A stretch of DNA of 64,000 nucleotides, taken from positions 1-64,000 of IMG/VR virus record IMGVR_UViG_3300014204_000112. One strand, given 5' to 3'. Origin of the DNA: a virus. Lineage: Duplodnaviria > Caudoviricetes. The position numbers were made by a program, and so were the translations under genes. The notes under the pieces are model-generated. The model was not told the origin of the DNA and ran no database searches. It saw nothing but the letters and a program-made list of their open reading frames with translations. This document shows positions 1-51,411 of this stretch, piece after piece (positions within the stretch are counted from its first letter, which is position 1; every line of letters begins with the position of its first letter).

Positions 1-3000
1 GTTCCAGATGAGCCTGATGTACCAGAATTTCCAGACGAACCTGATGTTCCTGAGCTACCGCTTGTTCCTGAAGAACCTGATGTTCCAGAAGAACCAGAGG
101 AACCGCTCGAGCCAGATGATCCACTTGTTCCTGAACTTCCTGATGTACCACTCGATCCGGATGATCCGCTTGATCCTGAAGAACCAGAAGATCCTGATGT
201 TCCAGATGAACCTGAAGTTCCAGATGATCCACTTGAACCGGAAGAACCCGAAGTACCGCTTGATCCACTTGTTCCGGAAGATCCAGATGAACCTGATTTG
301 CCTGATGATCCGCTTGATCCTGAAGAACCTGATGATCCGCTTGTTCCGGAAGATCCTGAAGTACCAGATGAACCGGATGTTCCTGATGAACCTGATGAAC
401 CTGAAGAACCGCTTGTTCCTGAGCTGCCGGATGTTCCAGAAGATCCAGATGATCCGCTTGTTCCGCTCGACCCAGATGTTCCGGACGATCCACTTGAACC
501 TGACGAACCGGATGTTCCCGAAGAACCTGAGGTACCTGAACTTCCAGAAGTTCCAGAAGATCCCGATGATCCACTTGTTCCACTTGAACCTGACGTACCT
601 GATGAGCCAGACGTTCCGCTTGATCCCGATTTTCCACTTGAACCAGATGAACCGCTAGAGCCTGATGTGCCTGAAGATCCTGAGGTACCTGAACTTCCTG
701 AAGAACCTGATGTACCACTAGAGCCTGATGTTCCAGAACTTCCACTTGTTCCGCTAGAACCTGACGAACCACTTGTTCCTGAACTGCCGGACGTTCCGGA
801 TGATCCTGATGTTCCAGATGAACCTGATTTTCCACTTGAACCAGATGAACCTGAGCTACCTGAACTTCCGCTTGTTCCGCTTGAACCTGAGGTGCCTGAA
901 TTTCCAGATGAGCCTGATGTTCCACTCGAACCACTTGTTCCAGAAGAGCCAGAGCTTCCTGATGATCCACTTGAACCTGAGGTGCCTGAAGAGCCGGAGG
1001 TACCAGAACTTCCGCTAGTTCCGCTAGAACCAGAAGAGCCTGATGAGCCAGAGGTACCGCTCGAACCGGAAGTACCGCTTGAACCACTTGTACCAGAACT
1101 TCCGCTAGTTCCGCTTGACCCTGAGGTACCTGAGTTTCCTGAAGAACCTGACGTACCGGATGAACCTGATGTTCCTGATGATCCGGATTTTCCAGAAGAA
1201 CCACTCGAACCTGAACTACCTGAGGAGCCAGAAGTTCCGCTTGAACCAGAAGAACCAGATGAACCACTTGTTCCTGAACTTCCAGATGTTCCAGAAGAGC
1301 CTGACGTGCCTGAGGAACCGGATGAGCCTGATGAACCACTTGTTCCTGAGCTTCCTGATGTTCCACTAGACCCACTTGATCCTGATGTACCTGAAGAACC
1401 AGAAGTTCCGCTTGAACCGGATGTGCCTGAGTTACCAGAAGAACCTGAAGTTCCGCTTGAACCGGAAGTTCCAGATGAACCTGATTTACCAGAAGATCCA
1501 CTAGATCCAGAAGAGCCAGATGATCCACTTGATCCTGAAGTACCGCTTGATCCGCTTGTTCCTGAAGAACCAGAAGTCCCTGAATTTCCAGATGATCCGC
1601 TCGTTCCTGAGCTTCCTGATGTACCTGATGTGCCCGATGATCCACTAGTTCCTGACGAACCTGAAGTTCCACTCGACCCACTAGAGCCAGATGTTCCAGA
1701 AGAACCTGATGTGCCGGAGGAGCCGCTTGTTCCTGATGAGCCTGAGGTTCCTGAATTACCAGAAGAACCGGAAGTACCTGATGATCCGCTAGTTCCAGAA
1801 GAACCAGATGTACCGGACGATCCTGATTTACCAGAAGAACCAGAAGAACCTGACGAACCGCTGGATCCTGAAGTTCCAGATGATCCGCTAGTTCCAGATG
1901 AGCCAGAAGTTCCGCTAGAACCACTTGAACCAGATGTTCCGCTTGATCCACTTGAACCGGAAGTTCCAGATGATCCACTAGTTCCTGACGAACCTGAAGT
2001 TCCGCTCGACCCACTAGAGCCCGAAGTTCCACTTGACCCGCTAGTTCCTGAGCTTCCTGATGTACCGCTTGAACCTGAGGAACCGGAAGTTCCTGAGTTA
2101 CCTGAAGAGCCTGATGTACCGGACGACCCACTCGAGCCTGAAGAACCGGAAAAACCTGATGTGCCGCTTGATCCTGATTTTCCAGAAGAGCCTGACGTTC
2201 CAGAGGATCCGCTTGAACCACTAGAACCAGAAGTACCGCTTGAACCGCTAGTACCAGATGAGCCTGACGTACCGCTCGAACCGGAAGATCCGGAAGTTCC
2301 AGATGATCCACTAGTTCCTGAGCTTCCTGATGTACCAGATGATCCACTTGATCCTGAAGTTCCCGAAGAACCGGATTTACCAGAAGATCCACTAGATCCG
2401 GAAGAGCCAGATGAGCCGCTTGAGCCTGAAGAACCTGAAGTTCCAGAAGACCCGCTTGAGCCGGAAGTTCCGGATGACCCACTAGATCCAGAGGTTCCTG
2501 AATTTCCGCTAGAACCTGATGTGCCAGATGATCCGCTTGTTCCACTTGATCCTGAAGTTCCCGAAGAACCGGATTTACCAGAAGATCCACTAGATCCGGA
2601 AGAGCCAGATGAGCCGCTTGAGCCTGAAGAACCTGAAGTTCCAGAAGAACCAGATGTGCCGGACGATCCGCTTGTGCCGGACGAACCTGATGTACCAGAT
2701 GATCCGCTTGAACCTGAAGTTCCAGATGAACCACTTGAGCCGGAAGAACCGGAAGTTCCTGAGCTTCCAGATGTACCACTTGAGCTAGAAGTTCCCGATG
2801 ACCCACTAGAGCCCGATGTTCCGCTTGAGCCGCTTGTGCCGGAAGAACCTGATGTACCTGACGAACCACTAGAACCTGATGTTCCAGAATTTCCAGATGA
2901 TCCAGAAGTACCACTTGAACCTGAAGAGCCTGAAGTTCCGGAAGAACCGCTTGTTCCGCTTGAGCCAGACGATCCTGATGTTCCGCTTGAGCCAGACGTT

Positions 3001-6000
3001 CCTGAACTGCCACTTGTTCCACTAGAACCAGAAGTTCCTGAATTTCCAGAAGAACCAGAAGTACCTGAGCTTCCAGACGTTCCACTCGAACCGGATTTAC
3101 CGGATGACCCGCTTGAACCAGAACTTCCTGATGAACCTGAAGATCCAGACGACCCAGATGATCCCGATGTACCTGACGAACCACTAGAACCTGATGTTCC
3201 GGAAGAACCGGAAGTACCACTTGATCCTGACGTACCTGACGACCCTGAACTACCAGAGGTTCCGGATGATCCGCTTGTTCCACTTGATCCTGATGTACCA
3301 GATGAACCACTTGTTCCGCTTGAACCAGATGTTCCAGATGATCCACTTGAACCTGAAGTACCACTTGATCCTGAGCTTCCACTTGTTCCAGAAGAACCAG
3401 AAGTTCCGGAGGAACCTGAGGTACCTGAACTTCCAGAAGTACCACTTGAACCTGAAGAACCTGAGCTGCCAGAAGTACCAGATGAACCACTTGTTCCAGA
3501 AGAACCTGATGTGCCTGAGCTTCCAGAAGATCCAGATGAACCTGACGTTCCACTCGATCCACTTGTTCCAGAGCTTCCTGACGTACCAGAAGAACCAGAA
3601 GTTCCACTTGACCCGGACGAGCCAGATTTTCCGTTTGAACCACTTGAACCCGATGATCCACTTGATCCTGACGAGCCTGAGCTTCCGCTTGTTCCAGAAG
3701 AACCAGAAGTACCGCTTGACCCAGATTTGCCAGATGATCCACTGGATCCACTTGAACCTGAAGTTCCACTTGAACCTGAGCTTCCAGATGTACCGCTTGA
3801 TCCACTTGTTCCAGAAGATCCAGAAGTTCCGCTTGAACCAGATGAACCTGAAGAACCTGAGGTTCCAGATGATCCACTTGTTCCTGAAGAGCCAGAAGTA
3901 CCTGATGATCCACTTGTTCCGCTTGAACCAGATGAACCTGAAATACCAGATGATCCACTTGTTCCAGAGCTTCCTGACGTACCAGAAGAACCAGAAGTTC
4001 CACTTGACCCGCTTGAGCCTGAGCTACCTGAAGTTCCACTTGACCCTGAAGTTCCTGAGCTTCCAGATGTACCAGATGACCCACTTGATCCTGAACTTCC
4101 AGATGTGCCAGACGAACCTGATGTACCACTCGATCCACTAGTTCCAGATGAGCCAGATGTTCCACTTGACCCAGACGATCCTGATGTACCGCTCGAGCCT
4201 GAGCTTCCGCTTGTTCCAGAAGATCCTGACGTTCCTGACGATCCTGATGTACCAGAAGAACCAGAAGTTCCTGAAGAACCACTAGTTCCACTCGAGCCAG
4301 AAGTTCCAGAAGACCCACTTGATCCTGATGAACCTGATGTACCAGATGATCCGCTTGTTCCTGAGCTACCTGATGTACCACTAGAACCTGACGTTCCAGA
4401 ACTTCCACTTGATCCACTAGTACCTGAAGAACCTGATGATCCTGATTTTCCACTTGAACCGGAAGAACCGCTTGAGCCTGAAGATCCTGATGAACCTGAT
4501 GAACCTGACGAACCGGAAGTTCCAGAACTTCCACTCGTTCCGCTTGATCCACTAGAACCACTTGTTCCTGAAGATCCTGACGTGCCAGATGATCCACTAG
4601 AACCAGAACTACCAGAAGTTCCTGACGATCCTGAAGTTCCTGATGATCCACTTGACCCAGAAGAGCCAGATGTTCCCGAGGACCCGCTTGTTCCAGATGA
4701 ACCTGAAGTTCCAGATGAACCACTTGAACCAGAACTACCAGAAGAGCCCGAAGACCCGCTTGTTCCTGAAGACCCTGATGACCCGCTGGTTCCAGATGAA
4801 CCTGACGTTCCGCTTGAACCGCTTGTACCTGAAGAACCGGAAGTTCCAGATGAACCACTTAAACCAGAACTACCTGATGTACCCGAAGAACCTGAGGTAC
4901 CACTTGAACCAGACGTTCCTGATGATCCACTCGATCCAGATGAACCTGAAGTTCCAGATGATCCGCTTGATCCACTAGTTCCTGAGCTTCCAGATGTACC
5001 AGAAGAACCACTCGAACCTGATTTTCCAGATGAACCACTAGAGCCTGAACTTCCAGAAGAACCAGAAGAACCGCTTGAACCGGAAGAACCAGATGTTCCG
5101 CTTGAACCTGACGAACCTGAGCTACCAGAAGTACCTGAACTTCCACTTGTTCCACTCGATCCTGAGCTACCAGAAGATCCACTTGTTCCACTCGATCCTG
5201 ACGTTCCTGCCGAACCGCTTGTTCCACTCGAACCAGATGATCCTGAACTACCAGAAGAACCGCTTGTTCCGCTTGATCCAGATGAACCACTAGAACCTGA
5301 AGTACCACTCGACCCGCTTGTTCCAGAGCTTCCAGAAGAACCACTTGAACCACTCGAACCTGAGGTTCCGCTTGAACCAGATGAACCGGAAGTACCAGAT
5401 GATCCACTTGTTCCAGAGCTTCCACTTGACCCAGAAGATCCACTAGACCCACTTGATCCTGAGCTACCAGATGAGCCTGAGGTACCGCTAGATCCACTTG
5501 AACCGGAAGATCCAGATGTACCTGAACTACCACTTGTTCCAGAGCTTCCAGAAGTTCCAGATGAACCAGATGATCCGCTTGAACCTGACGTTCCTGAACT
5601 ACCTGAAGAACCAGATGTTCCAGATGAACCACTAGAACCACTTGTACCACTACTGCCAGACGAACCTGATGTACCGCTAGATCCTGAAGTTCCTGATGAT
5701 CCAGATGTACCAGAGGAACCACTTGAGCCTGAAGATCCTGATGTACCAGATGAACCTGAGGTTCCACTTGATCCACTAGAACCTGATGTGCCGCTAGAGC
5801 CAGATGTTCCAGAAGAACCGCTAGTTCCGCTTGAACCAGACGTTCCTGAACTACCCGAAGTTCCACCTGAACCTGATGAGCCAGAAGAACCTGAGGTACC
5901 AGATGATCCACTTGTTCCAGAAGAACCTGACGTTCCTGAGCTACCAGATGAACCTGAGGTTCCACTTGATCCAGAACTACCAGAGGAACCACTTGAGCCA

Positions 6001-9000
6001 CTTGTACCACTACTACCAGATGAGCCTGATGTACCACTAGACCCTGACGTTCCCGATGAACCGGAAGTGCCTGAACTACCAGAATTACCAGAAGAGCCAC
6101 TTGAACCACTTGATCCTGAAGATCCAGAGATTCCACTTGACCCACTTGTTCCAGAGCTTCCAGATGTACCTGAAGAGCCAGAAGAACCAGATGATCCACT
6201 AATGCCGCTTGATCCTGAAGATCCAGATGTGCCGGACAAACCTGAACTACCAGATGTTCCAGATGAACCACTTGAACCTGAGGTACCTGAGCTTCCAGAG
6301 GATCCGCTTGTTCCACTAGAACCAGATGATCCTGATTTTCCAGAAGAACCACTCGATCCAGAAGATCCAGAGCTGCCAGAAGAACCTGAAGACCCGGAGC
6401 TTCCGGAGGTTCCGCTTGATCCGCTAGAACCAGAAGAACCACTTGATCCACTTGTACCGCTACTACCAGAAGAGCCTGACGTACCGCTTGAACCGGAGGT
6501 ACCTGAACTACCTGAAGTTCCACTCGAACCTGATGTACCACTCGATCCTGAAGATCCAGATGACCCGCTTGTTCCGCTTGAACCTGACGTACCTGAACTT
6601 CCACTTGTTCCTGATGAACCTGGGCTGCCAGATGATCCACTTGAGCCACTCGTACCACTACTACCAGAAGAACCTGATGTACCGCTAGATCCTGAAGTTC
6701 CAGATGAACCTGATGTGCCTGACGAACCAGAAGAACCGCTTGATCCACTTGAACCTGAACTACCGCTTATTCCTGAAGATCCAGAAGTACCTGAACTTCC
6801 AGACGATCCACTTGAACCTGATGTTCCTGACGAGCCAGAAGTTCCACTTGACCCTGACGTACCACTTGATCCTGAACTTCCGCTTGATCCAGACGTACCG
6901 GAAGAACCTGAGGTTCCGCTTGAACCAGACGTGCCGGAACTTCCAGAAGAACCACTTGATCCAGAAGTACCTGAACTTCCAGAAGTTCCTGATGAACCGG
7001 AAGAACCTGATTTACCTGAGGATCCACTAGATCCACTTGAACCTGAGCTTCCTGAAGAACCACTTGATCCAGATGATCCACTTGTTCCACTAGATCCTGA
7101 AGTACCGGATGAACCAGAAGTTCCACTTGATCCAGAAGATCCTGAGCTACCAGAGGTTCCTGATGAACCACTTGAACCAGACGATCCACTTGATCCAGAT
7201 GTTCCAGAACTTCCTGATGTTCCACTAGATCCTGAACTGCCTGAAGAACCGGACGTTCCACTAGATCCTGAAGAACCAGAAGAGCCAGATGAACCGCTAG
7301 TTCCAGAAGAACCTGAAGTTCCAGAGCTTCCAGATGAACCACTTGAACCTGATGTACCTGAACTACCAGATGTACCCGAAGAACCTGAGGTTCCACTAGA
7401 TCCTGAAGAACCAGATGATCCGCTTGTTCCTGAAGAACCACTTGAACCAGAACTACCTGAGGTCCCTGATGAACCGGAAGTACCGCTTGAACCTGACGTT
7501 CCGGATGACCCACTAGATCCGCTAGAACCAGATGTACCGCTTGATCCTGAGGTACCTGAGCTTCCAGAAGATCCAGATGAACCTGAACTACCTGATGTAC
7601 CACTTGAGCCTGATGTTCCAGAAGAACCCGATGTACCTGAACTGCCAGACGTTCCAGAAGAACCTGAGCTACCAGATGTACCGCTCGAACCTGAAGTTCC
7701 TGAGCTTCCACTAGTACCGCTAGATCCTGAAGAACCTGAACTTCCTGAAGAACCATTTGATCCACTCGTTCCTGAAGAACCAGATGTTCCTGAGGATCCG
7801 CTTGTACCTGAAGAACCTGACGTACCGCTTGATCCACTCGAGCCAGATGAACCGCTAGAACCAGATGTTCCAGATGAACCACTAGATCCTGAAGTACCTG
7901 AAGAACCAGAAGTTCCACTTGACCCGCTTGACCCTGAGTTTCCAGAAGAGCCAGAGGTTCCTGAACTTCCAGACGTACCAGATGAGCCGCTTGAGCCAGA
8001 ATTACCTGAACTACCAGAGGTTCCGCTCGATCCACTTGTTCCTGAAGAACCAGAAGAACCTGAGTTTCCAGATGAACCCGATGTTCCACTTGAACCACTT
8101 GAGCCACTATTTCCTGAGGAGCCTGATGTACCACTTGACCCACTAGTTCCAGATGAACCTGAAGTGCCAGATGATCCCGAAGTACCACTTGAACCGCTTG
8201 ATCCTGACGATCCCGAATTTCCGCTTGAACCTGAGGTTCCGGAAGAACCTGACGTACCAGAACTTCCTGAGGACCCTGAATTACCGGAAGAACCGGATGT
8301 TCCTGAGGATCCACTAGAACCGCTTGAGCCAGAATTTCCTGACGAACCAGAAGTTCCACTAGAGCCAGAAGAACCGGAATTACCTGACGAGCCTGAAGTT
8401 CCACTTGAGCCACTTGAACCAGAAGTTCCAGAGTTACCAGAAGAACCTGAGGAGCCGGATGATCCAGAGTTTCCTGAACTTCCAGAAGTTCCACTTGAAC
8501 CGGACGATCCTGAATTACCAGAAGAACCTGATGTTCCTGACGAACCACTTGACCCGCTTGAGCCAGAATTGCCGCTCGATCCTGAAGTTCCAGAAGAACC
8601 CGATGTTCCGCTAGAACCAGACGAACCGCTTGTGCCTGAGGAACCCGAATTTCCGGAAGACCCTGATGTTCCCGAAGAACCAGAAGAGCCGGAGTTTCCT
8701 GACGAACCACTTGAACCGGAAGATCCCGAGTTTCCTGAGGAGCCGGAGGTTCCTGAAGACCCACTTGATCCTGAAGTTCCCGAGGTTCCAGATTTTCCAG
8801 ATGAGCCTGACGTACCGGAAGAACCGGAGGAGCCAGATGAACCCGAATTTCCAGAACTACCGGAGGTTCCACTTGATCCAGATGACCCAGATGTTCCAGA
8901 ATTGCCGGACGAACCTGAGGTTCCGGAAGAACCTGAATTGCCTGAAGAACCGCTTGTTCCTGAGGAACCAGACGTTCCGCTTGAACCACTTGAACCTGAA

Positions 9001-9330
9001 GTTCCAGAGTTACCAGAAGAACCTGATGTTCCACTTGAACCGCTATTTCCTGAGGATCCTGATGTGCCGCTTGATCCTGAGGTTCCTGAACTTCCACTTG
9101 AACCAGATGAACCTGAAGTTCCTGAACTTCCACTTGACCCACTTGAGCCAGAATTGCCTGCCGAACCTGAAGTTCCGCTAGAACCACTTGATCCAGAATT
9201 GCCTGAACTACCGCTAGTTCCTGAAGAACCACTGGATCCAGAATTGCCAGACGAACCTGACGTACCACTTGAACCGGAGTTTCCTGAGCTTCCGCTTGTT
9301 CCTGAGCTTCCTGACGAACCAGACGTTCCG
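1..9330. repeat. Degenerate 9-bp tandem repeat (~1035 units) encoding Gly-X-Ser
   Basis: On the + strand CC recurs every 9 nt (Gly codons on the minus strand). Longer near-exact duplications exist, e.g. 2343-2450 = 2541-2648. Confidence 0.97.
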
Positions 9331-9452
9331 CCTCCAGCAGTATCACTCCAAAAGACGTTACCATCGTCATCGATCACTAGGACCTTGATCTTGGTTGCAT
9401 CTTTCTGTACGTGGCTGAGATCGACTTGCTTAATCTGTAACTTATTTGACAT
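1..9452 (-). CDS. Giant Gly-X-Ser (GTS/GSS/GNS) repeat protein, >3150 aa, 3' end outside window; probable virion fibre/appendage
   Basis: ATG at 9452 reads MSNKLQIKQVDLSHVQKDATKIKVLVIDDDGNVFWSDTAGGGTSGSSGSSGTSG. No stop is seen down to position 1, which is why the ORF track omits it. It is co-oriented with its neighbours and has an ATAAATA late promoter 28 nt upstream. Confidence 0.92.
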   Translation of the reverse strand, partial: MSNKLQIKQVDLSHVQKDATKIKVLVIDDDGNVFWSDTAGGGTSGSSGSSGTSGSSGNSGSSGTSGSSGNSGSSGSSGTSGSSGNSGSSGSSGTSGSAGNSGSSGSSGSSGTSGSSGSSGSSGTSGSSGTSGSSGNSGSSGTSGSSGNSGTSGSSGSSGTSGSSGTSGSSGNSGSSGTSGSSGNSGTSGSSGSSGTSGSSGNSGSSGSSGSSGTSGSSGKSGTSGTSGSSGSSGTSGSSGNSGSSGSSGSSGNSGSSGSSGTSGSSGNSGSSGTSGSSGSSGTSGSSGTSGSSGNSGSSGSSGSSGTSGSSGNSGSSGSSGTSGSSGNSGSSGSSGSSGNSGTSGSSGSSGTSGSSGNSGSSGSSGTSGSSGNSGSSGSSGSSGTSGSSGNSGSSGSSGTSGSSGTSGSSGNSGSSGSSGSSGTSGSSGTSGSSGTSGSSGTSGSSGNSGSSGSSGTSGSSGNSGSSGSSGTSGSSGTSGSSGNSGSSGSSGTSGSSGTSGSSGNSGSSGSSGTSGSSGTSGSSGSSGTSGSSGSSGSSGSSGTSGSSGTSGSSGTSGSSGTSGSNGSSGSSGSSGSSGTSGSSGTSGSSGTSGSSGSSGTSGSSGTSGSSGTSGSSGTSGSSGSSGSSGSSGTSGSSGTSGSSGSSGSSGTSGSSGTSGSSGTSGSSGSSGSSGTSGSSGSSGSSGTSGSSGTSGSSGTSGSSGSSGSSGTSGSSGTSGSSGSSGSSGSSGTSGSSGSSGSSGTSGSSGTSGSSGSSGSSGSSGTSGSSGSSGSSGTSGSSGTSGSSGTSGSSGSSGSSGSSGSSGSSGSSGKSGSSGSSGTSGSSGTSGSSGSSGSSGTSGSSGTSGSSGTSGSSGSSGSSGTSGSSGTSGSSGTSGSSGSSGSSGTSGSSGISGSSGSSGSSGSSGSSGTSGSSGTSGSSGTSGSSGSSGTSGSSGSSGSPGSSGTSGSSGTSGSSGTSGSSGSSGSSGTSGSSGTSGSSGTSGSSGTSGSSGSSGTSGSSGSSGSSGSSGTSGSSGSSGSSGSSGSSGSSGSSGKSGSSGSSGTSGSSGSSGTSGSSGSSGTSGSSGLSGTSGSSGSSGISGSSGSSGSSGTSGSSGTSGSSGISGSSGSSGSSGSSGNSGSSGTSGSSGTSGSSGTSGSSGSSGTSGSSGSSGSSGSSGTSGSSGSSGTSGSSGTSGSSGTSGSSGSSGSGGTSGSSGTSGSSGTSGSSGTSGSSGTSGSSGSSGTSGSSGTSGSSGSSGSSGTSGSSGTSGSSGTSGSSGSSGTSGSSGSSGTSGSSGSSGTSGSSGSSGSSGTSGSSGTSGSSGTSGSSGSSGSSGTSGSSGSSGSSGSSGSSGSSGSSGTSGSSGTSGSSGSSGTSGSSGSSGSSGSSGTSGSSGTSGSSGSSGSSGTSGSSGSSGSSGSSGTSGSAGTSGSSGTSGSSGSSGSSGTSGSSGTSGSSGSSGSSGTSGSSGSSGSSGSSGSSGSSGSSGKSGSSGSSGTSGSSGTSGSSGSSGTSGSSGSSGSSGTSGSSGTSGSSGTSGSSGLSGSSGTSGSSGTSGSSGTSGSSGTSGSSGSSGTSGSSGSSGSSGSSGSSGTSGSSGTSGSSGTSGSSGSSGSSGTSGSSGTSGSSGSSGSSGTSGSSGTSGSSGSSGTSGSSGTSGSSGSSGSSGSSGSSGSSGSSGKSGSSGSSGTSGSSGSSGTSGSSGTSGSSGTSGSSGTSGSSGSSGSSGTSGSSGTSGSSGTSGSSGTSGSSGTSGSSGTSGSSGSSGTSGSSGSSGTSGSSGTSGSSGTSGSSGTSGSSGSSGSSGTSGSSGTSGSSGTSGSSGSSGSSGTSGSSGTSGSSGTSGSSGISGSSGSSGTSGSSGTSGSSGTSGSSGTSGSSGSSGSSGTSGSSGTSGSSGTSGSSGSSGTSGSSGSSGSSGKSGSSGTSGSSGTSGSSGSSGSSGSSGSSGSNGKSGSSGSSGTSGSSGTSGSSGTSGSSGTSGSSGSSGSSGTSGSSGTSGSSGTSGSSGSSGSSGTSGSSGTSGSSGTSGSSGTSGSSGSSGTSGSSGSSGTSGSSGTSGSSGTSGSSGTSGSSGTSGSSGSSGTSGSSGTSGSSGTSGSSGSSGTSGSSGSSGSSGSSGSSGSSGSSGKSGSSGTSGSSGTSGSSGNSGTSGSSGTSGSSGTSGSSGTSGSSGSSGTSGSSGTSGSSGSSGTSGSSGNSGTSGSSGSSGTSGSSGTSGSSGTSGSSGSSGTSSSSGTSGSSGTSGSSGSSGSSGTSGSSGSSGTSGSSGTSGSSGTSGSSGTSGSSGSSGSSGSSGSSGSSGKSGSSGTSGSSGTSGSSGTSGSSGNSGTSGSSGSSGTSGSSGSSGTSGSSGSSGSSGSSGSSGSSGKSGSSGTSGSSGSSGTSGSSGTSGSSGTSGSSGSSGTSGSSGTSGSSGTSGSSGSSGSSGTSGSSGKSGSSGTSGFSGSSGSSGSSGTSGSSGNSGTSGSSGSSGTSGSSGTSGSSGTSGSSGSSGTSGSSGTSGSSGTSGSSGSSGTSGSSGSSGTSGSSGTSGSSGTSGSSGSSGSSGSSGKSGSSGTSGSSGTSGSSGTSGSSGNSGTSGSSGTSGSSGTSGSSGTSGSSGSSGTSGSSGTSGSSGTSGTSGSSGTSGSSGNSGTSGSSGTSGSSGTSGSSGSSGSSGSSGSSGKSGSSGTSGSSGTSGSSGNSGTSGSSGTSGSSGTSGSSGSSGTSGSSGTSGSSGSSGSSGTSGSSGTSGSSGTSGSSGSSGSSGTSGSSGSSGSSGSSGKSGSSGTSGSSGTSGSSGNSGTSGSSGTSGSSGTSGSSGTSGSSGTSGSSGSSGSSGTSGSSGTSGSSGTSGSSGSSGSSGSSGTSGSSGTSGSSGNSGTSGSSGTSGSSGSSGSSGSSGKSGSSGTSGSSGTSGSSGTSGSSGSSGTSGSSGTSGSSGTSGSSGSSGTSGSSGTSGSSGSSGSSGKSGSSGTSGSSGTSGSSGTSGSSGSSGTSGSSGTSGSSGTSGSSGSSGSSGTSGSSGTSGSSGSSGTSGSSGTSGSSGSSGSSGTSGSSGTSGSSGTSGSSGSSGSSGSSGKSGSSGSSGTSGSSGTSGSSGSSGSSGTSGSSGTSGSSGSSGSSGSSGSSGTSGSSGTSGSSGSSGSSGSSGTSGSSGTSGSSGTSGSSGNSGTSGSSG

Positions 9453-44590: not shown

Positions 44591-45775
44591 ATGAGCGTAA
44601 ATCCAGTAAACTTGTCACCAACTACGGCTGACATTCTTAATCAACCTACCTCCAAGTATAACGAAACGATCAAGTTAGCCTCGACCGATCGCAAATCCCG
44701 AGTAAAAATCTTTTGCAAAGAGCAGTACGCTCAAGAACTGTACGATCTGTACCTCAATAACGAGGTGACCAATGAGATCGGTTCGAAAGATTTTAGCGAG
44801 GGCCAGATTTGTACGGTTATTGCTAAGTCAATCGATTTCAATGAGAAGATCATTATCGCGGAGGAAAAGTATTCAAAATCCAGCGTTATCGTAGCCTTCC
44901 GGGAATTTTCCGACGACCCAGCATCCTTAGTTGAAAATGAGGCTGCCAGAGAATTCAAGGTCATGATCACCAAGGCGAATTCCGGAGATTATTACGGCTC
45001 CGAAAAGGAAACCGCAACCATTACTAACCGTGAGAACTTGAATGAGTTCATGCGCACGGACAAGTGGTTCACAGTTAAAGTCACCAGCTTGGTTAAGGGT
45101 GGGTACTTGGCTCTGTACAAAGGAACGATCAAATGCTTCCTTCCTGGTTCACACGCTGCCGCCAACGTCATTCGCGATTTCAATGATTACTTGAATAAGG
45201 ACATTCCAGTAATGATTGAGAATTACGATTCAACCAACGCTCTGTACATCGTTTCTTACAAGAAGTACGTCAAACAGACCATGTCACAGAGGGTTCACGA
45301 ATTGGAATTCGGAAAGAAATACACCGGAATCCTTACGAACGACCCGTATCCATTTGGTATCTTTATCGAACTCGATGGTTACTTCACCGGCCTAATGCAT
45401 CAGACCGAATTCGAGGATTATGCAGCTTTCTGCCAGAACCTCAGGTCCGGCCAGGAATTGGAATTCTACGTGAAGGACATCGCAATCAAGAAGGGAGATC
45501 CACGAATCATTTTGACCGACACCCTTGAAAAAGTAGATCCCGACAAGTTAGCTTGGCAGGAGTTCAAGAAACGTATCGAAGGAAAAACCCTGAAGTACAT
45601 TTTGGATAAGAACGACTTCCATATCGAGGTCGACATGCCGGACGAAGACTCAACCTTCCGGACTGACGTAAGTCATCTTAAAGGCAAGATCCGTATCCCT
45701 AACAACGGAAACGTAACGATCCAGAGGGTCGACATTATTCGCAAAAATTTGAAGCTCGACTTTATCAATTTATAA
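44591..45775 (+). CDS. Ribosomal protein S1-like multi-S1-domain protein
   Basis: KVTSLVKGGY..CFLPGSH..IVSYKKY and FGIFIELDGYFTGLMHQTEF are S1 repeats. Confidence 0.85.
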   Translation: MSVNPVNLSPTTADILNQPTSKYNETIKLASTDRKSRVKIFCKEQYAQELYDLYLNNEVTNEIGSKDFSEGQICTVIAKSIDFNEKIIIAEEKYSKSSVIVAFREFSDDPASLVENEAAREFKVMITKANSGDYYGSEKETATITNRENLNEFMRTDKWFTVKVTSLVKGGYLALYKGTIKCFLPGSHAAANVIRDFNDYLNKDIPVMIENYDSTNALYIVSYKKYVKQTMSQRVHELEFGKKYTGILTNDPYPFGIFIELDGYFTGLMHQTEFEDYAAFCQNLRSGQELEFYVKDIAIKKGDPRIILTDTLEKVDPDKLAWQEFKKRIEGKTLKYILDKNDFHIEVDMPDEDSTFRTDVSHLKGKIRIPNNGNVTIQRVDIIRKNLKLDFINL

Positions 45776-50250: not shown

Positions 50251-50573
50251 TGATAGAAATTCACGGGTTCATCCCATTATTCGAAAGAGTTCTCATCAAG
50301 CCAGACGAGCCTGAAAAATTAACGGAAACCGGCATCATTCTTCCGGCTTCTTCCATAAAAAGACCGAATACTGGAATTGTCATGGCAATAGGGCATTTGG
50401 TTGGCCAGTCTAAGGCTCCAATCAATATCGGAGATCACGTTCTTTACTTGAGATATTCAGGTTTTGATACGGTGATAAACGGTGAGACCTATCACCTTGT
50501 CATGGTAAATGACTTAGTCGGAATTATAGATAACTCAGGTAGCAATACCTTCGAGTTAAAAGACTACAGTTAA
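50250..50573 (+). CDS. groES: Co-chaperonin GroES
   Basis: PLFERVLIKP..TETGIILP..GIVMAIG..GDHVLY..YSG. Confidence 0.93.
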   Translation: MIEIHGFIPLFERVLIKPDEPEKLTETGIILPASSIKRPNTGIVMAIGHLVGQSKAPINIGDHVLYLRYSGFDTVINGETYHLVMVNDLVGIIDNSGSNTFELKDYS

Positions 50574-51268
50574 TGGAAAAGATCGTACATGACTTCAGAA
50601 CTTACCTATTGAACGAATCCAAGGAGGAATCCGGTGGAATTCGTTTGTTTTGCGACATGGACGGAGTCCTAACGGACTTCGATCGTGGGTTCAAAAGATT
50701 AAAGGCCAACGAAGATCACCTTAAGCCAAAGGAATACGAGAAGAAGCATGGAAAGAATTCAATCTGGCCGTTAATTGATCATCGCGGAATAAAATTTTGG
50801 AAGCGTTTGCCGTGGAAAAGCGATGGCAGAGAGCTTTGGGATTACATTCACAGGTACTCGCCAGTCATTCTTTCGGCTCCAAGCAGAAGTCCAGATTCAG
50901 TCAAAGGGAAACTTTATTGGTTGAAGCTTAACCTTGGAATCAATGAGAAGCACCCAGCTCGAAAATTCGAAGAATGGGATGGCACGCAGAAGGTAATACT
51001 GACTGCAGATAAGGGAGCTTTTGCTGAATCCAAGAACGACATTCTAATTGACGATCGTAGGCCGAACATCGACAAATGGACGGAGGCCGGCGGAACCGGA
51101 ATCCTTCATAACGATTCAACTGATACCGTCCGTATCCTGGAAGGTATAATTTCAAAACTAAAGGGCGAGCCGGACGACGATAAAGAACCGGCAGAAAAGA
51201 TTGAACCTAAAAACACGGAGCAGAACGAACAGCCCGAAGATACACAAAACCAAGATCAAGGAGCATAA
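50573..51268 (+). CDS. HAD-family 5'(3')-deoxyribonucleotidase
   Basis: FCDMDGVLTDF and ILIDDR..NI..W..AGG.GILH. Confidence 0.88.
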   Translation: MEKIVHDFRTYLLNESKEESGGIRLFCDMDGVLTDFDRGFKRLKANEDHLKPKEYEKKHGKNSIWPLIDHRGIKFWKRLPWKSDGRELWDYIHRYSPVILSAPSRSPDSVKGKLYWLKLNLGINEKHPARKFEEWDGTQKVILTADKGAFAESKNDILIDDRRPNIDKWTEAGGTGILHNDSTDTVRILEGIISKLKGEPDDDKEPAEKIEPKNTEQNEQPEDTQNQDQGA

Positions 51269-51295
51269 GTTCTCGGACTTAAACCGAGTGGTGGA

Positions 51296-51374
51296 GTTGA
51301 CCAGATGGAATATTGGCTTGGAAGCAACCATCTATCTAAGGAGTGCGTAACTGCTCACCATCGAATCGGTCAGC
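51296..51374 (+). ncRNA. Standalone mimic of the 23S rRNA GTPase-associated centre (H42-H44, L10/L11-binding domain)
   Basis: GATGGAATATTGGCTTGGAAGCAACCATCTATCTAAGGAGTGCGTAACTGCTCACCATC aligns almost base-for-base with the recalled 23S nt 1051-1108; closing helices GATGG/CCATC and GTTGACC/GGTCAGC. Confidence 0.85.
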
Positions 51375-51381
51375 CTAAAAT

Positions 51382-51411
51382 GAAAAAGGGACTCAATTGA
51401 GTCCCTTTTTC
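51382..51411. terminator. Bidirectional terminator between convergent units
   Basis: Perfect 30-bp palindrome GAAAAAGGGACTCAATTGAGTCCCTTTTTC. Confidence 0.9.

Follow-up and report, generated by a model that had tools for sequence, protein, structure and literature searches.

Results

Genomic context of the RNA

The RNA-bearing phage is represented by an IMG/VR virus record of 213,922 bp (~214 kb, estimated 83% complete), of which the first 64,000 nucleotides were analysed here and are referred to as the window. The RNA sits in the 3' untranslated region of a 5'-nucleotidase-like gene at the end of a replication-gene operon (Table 1). This gene is the last of a plus-strand run that also contains a gp32-like SSB, a 5'-3' exonuclease and GroES (Pfam). 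On the other side, a tail sheath gene forms the far boundary of the 160-nt intergenic gap that holds the RNA. The closest GenBank relatives of the sheath protein are found in Flavobacterium phage MaF61 and Prevotella Lak phages (huge, uncultured; ~30% identity), which suggests a Bacteroidota host for this phage. BLAST searches of 50,697 phage records with the region, the 10 kb around it and the core of the RNA gave no match, and the window's own lineage is absent from cultured phages. The phage encodes 42 tRNA genes in one array at 127-159 kb, all on the minus strand and outside the window. The RNA thus lies ~76 kb or more from this array, and there is no tRNA gene within the window.

Table 1. 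Features at the RNA locus, with positions of the window
Feature	Position	Strand	Basis or remark
5'-nucleotidase / HAD-like gene, upstream of the RNA	50573-51268	+	ORF list; PHROG 5'-3' deoxyribonucleotidase, E 4.6e-21
5' hairpin (CUCGG, 7-nt loop, CCGAG)	51272-51288	+	Sequence and minimum-energy fold; one loop change in L182
H42-like stem, 5' strand (UGG, bulged A, GUUGACC) and one unpaired A	51292-51303	+	Infernal; fold
59-nt core, equivalent of E. coli 23S 1051-1108	51304-51362	+	Sequence; Infernal
Closing helix of the core	51304-51308 with 51358-51362	+	Infernal; sequence
H43 of the core	51310-51335	+	Infernal; sequence
1082-1086 junction loop of the core	51336-51340	+	Infernal; sequence
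H44 of the core	51341-51356	+	A1095 at 51349
Internal loop GAAUC and H42-like stem, 3' strand (GGUCAGC, CUA)	51363-51377	+	Infernal alignment; comparison with 23S gene L007
Hairpin with A-run before and U-run after	51383-51411	.	Fold; between the RNA and the sheath stop codon
Tail sheath gene, 1009 aa	51429-54458	-	PHROG tail sheath, E 2e-84; convergent with the RNA

Two further genes of the window deserve mention. At 3-9452 (-) a gene of >3150 codons runs off the window end and encodes little other than a collagen-like Gly-X-Y repeat (1312 bits for Pfam Collagen). Several further frames stay open owing to the 9-nt periodicity, and the product is probably a giant fibre protein. The protein encoded at 44591-45775 (+) has a single weak match to an S1 domain (E 0.0047; 17.7 bits at a cut-off of 22). 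A reading as a bS1-like ribosomal protein is unsupported at present, the S1 domain being below the cut-off and PHROG giving no match.

Architecture of the RNA

The phage RNA is ~110 nt long, and its stem plus core comprise 86 nt (51292-51377). In the core, numbered here as in E. coli 23S rRNA, the secondary structure of the GTPase-associated centre is formed: the closing helix, the H43 pairs 1057-59/1079-81 and 1062-64/1074-76 and the H44 pairs are in place, with C1064.A1074 as the exception. The nucleotides of the tertiary fold are present as well, namely U1060 with A1088, the 1082-1086 pair, A1070, A1084, A1085 and A1095. G1071 and C1072, the partners of the H44 pairs 1091-1100 and 1092-1099, are also retained. 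The 1082-1086 pair, for which E. coli has U-A and Haloarcula C-G, closes the junction loop (PMC2952862). Neither position 1061 nor A1067 is conserved or takes part in tertiary hydrogen bonding, and 1067 serves as a contact for EF-G and thiostrepton (PMC6239185).

An initial annotation, made from the letters alone, had identified this domain, and its sequence for 51304-51362 was confirmed by reading the window. The E. coli 23S stretch that it had used for comparison is identical to the corresponding stretch of a true 23S gene (L007). All of the elements it had described are found in the sequence, that is, the closing helix GAUGG/CCAUC, A-U at 1059-1079, C-G at 1082-1086, the C1064.A1074 mismatch, the GUUGACC/GGUCAGC stem with its GAAUC loop, the CUCGG/CCGAG hairpin on the 5' side and a terminator hairpin on the 3' side. 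It had missed an extra C at 51332, between 1078 and 1079, which makes the core 59 nt long instead of 58. It had likewise missed the states of 1067 (G, at 51320), 1056 (A) and 1098 (U). The true 23S rRNAs L005 and L183 have an additional nucleotide at the 1078/1079 site as well. The latter, a metagenomic 23S gene (Ga0310696_10611089; 876 bits), combines this nucleotide with G1067 and C-G at 1082-1086, and these rare states match those of the window copy.

In the minimum-energy fold the 5' strand of the H42-like stem pairs with 51368-51377. Infernal deletes 9 model positions in the H42 5' strand, and the 5'-strand internal loop of H42 is missing. On the 3' strand, the region UCGAAUCGGUC of the phage RNA resembles UCGAGUCGGCC of the true 23S gene L007. 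The minimum-energy fold also joins the closing strand to a strand of H43, as CCAUC occurs twice. We did not read this alternative as a switch because an unsplit copy on another viral contig (L006) is unable to form such a pairing.

The hairpin downstream of the RNA looks like an intrinsic terminator serving both convergent transcription units. This terminator was read from the fold; a simple promoter/terminator scan listed nothing, including this hairpin. With a start only 4 nt behind the nucleotidase stop codon and no promoter-like site in the scan, the RNA probably arises either directly as the 3' end of an mRNA or by cleavage from it. The initial description of the RNA as standalone holds in that no rRNA sequence adjoins it, but probably not with regard to the transcript from which it derives.

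Similarity to 23S rRNA

With Infernal, positions 51292-51396 (+) of the window aligned to positions 1071-1185 of 2925 of LSU_rRNA_bacteria. The match is thus confined to H42-H44, the outcome that had been expected of a cmsearch with the LSU model. The score for the 23S model (RF02541) was 42.3 bits (E 1.2e-11) in a search of 351 nt and 48.5 bits (E 1.5e-14) over the entire 214-kb record. Since the phage RNA stays below the Rfam gathering score of 50 bits for RF02541, a default Rfam scan of the window was empty, and a permissive scan recovered the 23S match. The phage RNA has neither the model-wide match of at least 50 bits nor the adjacent rRNA domains or operon by which a bacterial 23S gene is recognised. 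Neither a second copy nor any other stretch resembling rRNA nor a sarcin-ricin motif was detected in the whole 214-kb record, and the flanks of the RNA are phage genes.

Rfam 15 contains no family for the phage RNA. Apart from the 23S model, the matches that overlap 51292-51377 at E up to 10 are all at chance level. A sub-threshold ctRNA_p42d match (17.3 bits) covers the terminator hairpin alone. Full-text searches of the literature returned work on phage-encoded ribosomal proteins, leaders that imitate rRNA and the domain itself, and none on a phage RNA of the GTPase-centre kind. A description of a phage gene that copies a functional centre of rRNA was found neither in Rfam 15 nor in these full-text searches.

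A family of phage copies

Homologues in other phages, which the initial annotation had proposed to look for, were found by pattern scans of IMG/VR, including a two-part search that fixed some positions. The scans yielded >117 loci with the H43 motif, and the family comprises >100 viral loci. In most relatives H44 is interrupted, with 69-555 nt inserted between 1090 and 1091, and some carry another insert at the 1078/1079 site. Behind the 1090/1091 insert the GCGUAA loop follows, and the RNA closes on its own 5' end. An earlier reading of viral matches as H43 plus unrelated sequence, with H44 absent, was rejected, since folding of one locus and the two-part search show the split H44. The window copy belongs to the family by its self-closed core in a viral contig and its covarying helices, and it is of the compact type without the 1090/1091 insert. 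The unsplit copy L006, located on a 50-kb viral contig, is identical in 54/59 core positions and has the closing helix AUUGG/CCAAU instead of GAUGG/CCAUC.

Covariation was assessed for the H43 base and the closing helix at positions left free by the search patterns. The H43 base (1057-59/1079-81) was paired in 187/189 cells with 11 strand combinations, and the closing helix in 192/195 cells with 29 different helices; in both cases 0/2000 shuffles were as good. Similar results were obtained with a compact alignment of 12 sequences, which comprised 8 unsplit phage or metagenome copies (that of the window and 7 others) and 4 true 23S genes. Here 99% of the cells were paired, 9/17 pairs changed on both sides, and the covariation score was 0.521 versus 0.199 for shuffles. 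Moreover, the 1082-1086 pair covaries in the family as U-A, C-G and A-U, the states of 1056/1082/1086 being G/U/A (26), A/C/G (23) and G/A/U (4). Therefore, it is the three-dimensional fold that is conserved and not the helices alone. Position 1067 is variable, with A in 66, G in 18, U in 2 and C in 1 of the copies. The H44 loop GCGUAA with A1095 is present here and in 39/39 relatives with a located 3' half, the loop having been required by the search pattern.

The neighbourhood of the copies was compared next to their type. tRNA genes were found at 40 of the 60 family loci examined and at none of the four unsplit copies among them (L006, L063, L113 and L130). Five compact copies adjoin unrelated genes, encoding DnaJ, a GIY-YIG endonuclease, a lysozyme, NrdD and, here, the nucleotidase; a conserved neighbour gene was sought among the compact copies and none was found. 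As the neighbours are unrelated, the core behaves as an independent gene and not as a regulator of one neighbour. Selection thus acts on the unsplit core by itself, without need of a tRNA array.

Several other elements were noticed at these loci. In a 327-kb phage, a GIY-YIG/NUMOD3 homing-endonuclease gene (L063, 3932-4576, +) ends ~20 nt from the unsplit copy. On another viral contig, a GOLLD RNA (L022, 685-1176, -; 164.8 bits) shares the tRNA array with a split copy of the GTPase-centre RNA. Phage tmRNA genes (L015, 2083-2433; L025, 853-1296; L033, 8864-9131) likewise lie in tRNA arrays with split copies.

A possible origin of G1067 from host rRNA was tested by a search of 185,579 species genomes with a G1067-type pattern, in which no true rRNA matched. 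The sole match (L185, 4264-4322; JBAQPP010000013.1, a Candidatus Absconditicoccaceae MAG of the CPR) is a free-standing unsplit copy outside any rRNA gene, with the closing helix AUUGG/CCAAU and G at 1067. Under table 11 its contig shows hardly any long ORFs, which is what a recoded genome, or the phage of one, would be expected to show.

Cultured phages also carry the RNA. BLAST with a family 5' half revealed unannotated copies in Aeromonas phage 4_4572, Pseudomonas phages pf16, Astolliot and Milchi, Xanthomonas phages XacN1, XaC1 and XbC2, Serratia phage BF, Erwinia pEa_SNUABM phages, Erwinia phage Kaldavass, Cronobacter phage GAP32, Pectobacterium phage CBB, Yersinia phage fHe-Yen9-04 and a Vibrio phage. 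The copy of pf16 is located between tRNA-Asn and tRNA-Pro, that of GAP32 near 289.5 kb in an unannotated gap amid hypothetical genes. Both are split, and their 5' and 3' halves are complete.

Conservation on an independent contig

The metagenomic contig L182 shows the same order of nucleotidase, RNA and convergent sheath. The flanking proteins of the window and L182 are 67% and 78% identical and the adjacent upstream coding DNA aligns at 45%, whereas 112/117 positions (96%) are identical between the stop codon and the terminator (51266-51382). The H42-like stem is kept in L182. The core is identical in 58/59 positions, and the lone difference gives L182 a C1064-G1074 pair, which indicates that the mismatch of the window copy arose recently by a single change. 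The terminator stems of the two contigs are not alike, but both have a palindromic hairpin of their own at the same place. This pattern shows purifying selection on the RNA as RNA. The proposal that the uL11-binding domain has been copied structurally in this RNA and kept by selection is thus borne out by the conservation against diverged flanks, by the compensatory changes across phages and by the synteny on an independent contig. The counter-evidence that had been envisaged, a chimeric assembly or a lack of similarity with Infernal, did not emerge.

Discussion

In this study we describe a phage RNA that reproduces the GTPase-associated centre of 23S rRNA (top of H42, H43 and H44; E. coli 1051-1108). 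Both have the same secondary structure, a junction loop closed by 1082-1086 and the loops GAAGCA in H43 and GCGUAA in H44. However, the phage RNA lies outside an rRNA gene, follows a protein-coding operon and has its own closing helix and a simplified H42-like stem. Further differences are G1067, a C.A mismatch of 1064 with 1074 and the nucleotide added after 1078. With the split phage copies, such as those of pf16 and GAP32, it shares the core, the covarying helices and the covariation of 1056/1082/1086, but it has no insert and lies outside a tRNA array, whereas most relatives are found among tRNA genes. Large phages are known to encode tRNA arrays, tmRNA, bS21, bL12 and uL11 (PMC6375957, PMC13157829). 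The phage studied here shares this theme with its tRNA genes; in contrast to such parts, which are thought to join or serve the ribosome, the GTPase-centre RNA would act off it.

We propose that the RNA binds host uL11 as a decoy away from the ribosome, a reading that we consider about 50% probable. A small structured RNA would be transcribed from a gene that closes the replication-gene operon, with the downstream hairpin stopping transcription, and it would offer the GTPase-centre surface to the usual binders. Since 59 nt cannot take the place of the domain within 23S rRNA, any action of the RNA must take place away from the ribosome. Host uL11 would be the likeliest ligand. This protein is an exchangeable ribosomal protein and recognises the fold in isolated 58-nt fragments. 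If uL11 were soaked up, fewer ribosomes would carry it. RelA activation depends on uL11, and a possible pay-off would be that uL11-dependent RelA activation is blunted while phage translation continues. We infer transcription, uL11 binding and all of the downstream effects. The variation at 1067 in a fold that is kept suits a ligand that reads the fold, such as the C-terminal domain of uL11, better than a reader of A1067. A uL11 gene was found neither in this phage's record nor in any of 30 other carrier records, 15 of which are at least 90% complete; therefore, any ribosomal-protein partner is that of the host. Genes for uL10 (0/16 carriers) and bL12 (above the cut-off in 1/16) were also searched for and none was found in this record, nor did we find an EF-Tu-type GTPase in this phage. 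Besides, the unrelated neighbours of the five compact copies fit an RNA that acts in trans.

Some points count against the decoy. The C1064.A1074 mismatch, which is absent in L182, together with G1067 and U1098 could reduce the affinity for uL11, and the titration of an abundant ribosomal protein needs very abundant RNA. As uL11 is not known to autoregulate, what the phage would gain from a sponge is speculative. The location of many family members in tRNA arrays fits a spare part or a shield for translation at least as well as an anti-stringent theme. Binding of uL10 by the window copy is doubtful. The stalk complex requires an almost complete H42 including its conserved internal loop, with a minimal fragment of 95 nt (PMC1635324), whereas the 86 nt of stem and core differ from such a uL10-(bL12)n site by the 9 positions deleted from the H42 5' strand, together with the loop on that side, and are rRNA-like on the 3' strand.

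The main rival to the uL11 decoy is a shield. In this case the RNA would be a competitive sink for effectors of the host or a competitor, or for thiopeptide antibiotics, that recognise the GTPase-associated centre, and would thereby spare the ribosomes. We regard this as unlikely. We know of no anti-phage system aimed at the GTPase-associated centre, and, as judged from A1067 mutants, a G at 1067 would weaken binding of the thiostrepton type; both count against it. Retention of the GCGUAA loop with A1095 in all copies where it could be located would agree with a shield, though the pattern required this loop, and the position of many family members among phage tRNA genes suits a protection of translation. 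Candidate effectors are known: the bacterial conflict toxin Tre23 ADP-ribosylates nucleotides 1095-1098 of H44 and blocks the GTPase of EF-G, and thiostrepton, nosiheptide and micrococcin bind H43/H44 (PMC8661411). However, Tre23 is reported to target ribosomes engaged in active translation, so that it may not accept a naked RNA (PMC8661411). Phage RNA decoys of defence components exist, as pseudo-ToxI of phage PhiTE illustrates (PMC3475682). Like our RNA it mimics a cellular RNA, but the model is an antitoxin RNA in that case and a functional centre of the ribosome in ours.

It is improbable that the RNA, either alone or in complex with host uL11 and the uL10-bL12 stalk, serves away from the ribosome as a trap or platform for translational GTPases or RelA and so alters how much of them is available. 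EF-G, EF-Tu and further GTPases dock on this domain (PMC8661411, PMC2952862), and an H42-like stem is present and conserved in L182. On the other hand, a sarcin-ricin motif is absent from this phage record, the internal loop of H42 that the stalk requires is missing on the 5' strand (PMC1635324), and A1067, which contacts the factors, is G here and varies in the family.

We give still less credence to a cis-acting mRNA element, be it a stabiliser of the 3' end or a regulator of neighbouring genes that senses a ribosomal protein. Such a role would agree with the start of the RNA just behind a stop codon, the adjacent terminator and the lack of a promoter-like site. It would also have a parallel in the r-protein leaders (L10 leader RF00557, L20, S15 and S4; PMC7247131), which are likewise off-ribosome RNAs that mimic the rRNA site of an r-protein. 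However, these leaders are cis-regulators located before their own operon and share few contact nucleotides with rRNA, whereas the phage RNA is a near-complete domain with a nucleotidase and a tail sheath gene as neighbours and no r-protein gene nearby. It matched neither the L10_leader nor any other leader family at E up to 10. Moreover, the relatives lie in tRNA arrays or beside unrelated genes, and a plain hairpin would suffice for stability. A functionless scrap of captured host rDNA or an assembly chimera, which the 61-81% identity of the core to true 23S rRNA might call to mind, is ruled out to within a very small residual probability, because the RNA covers H42-H44 only, lies mid-contig in a 214-kb phage, recurs with its gene order on an independent contig, is conserved far beyond its diverged flanks and differs from the other copies in a compensatory manner.

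Taking the uL11 decoy further, we tentatively suggest that the free-standing copy of the factor-docking centre in large phages of many hosts may be an RNA weapon. Together with host uL11 it could form an off-ribosome particle that disarms a hitherto undescribed class of immunity directed at ribosomes or silences the uL11-dependent stringent alarm, and the compact copy might be its minimal active form. The cultured carriers make the decoy idea directly testable. To the family of split copies the window adds a compact, unsplit form. If the RNA binds uL11 or soaks up other ligands of this site, it would represent a new viral way to manipulate translation or to escape immunity, and it would also be a natural, minimal and self-folding version of a classic RNA-protein model system.
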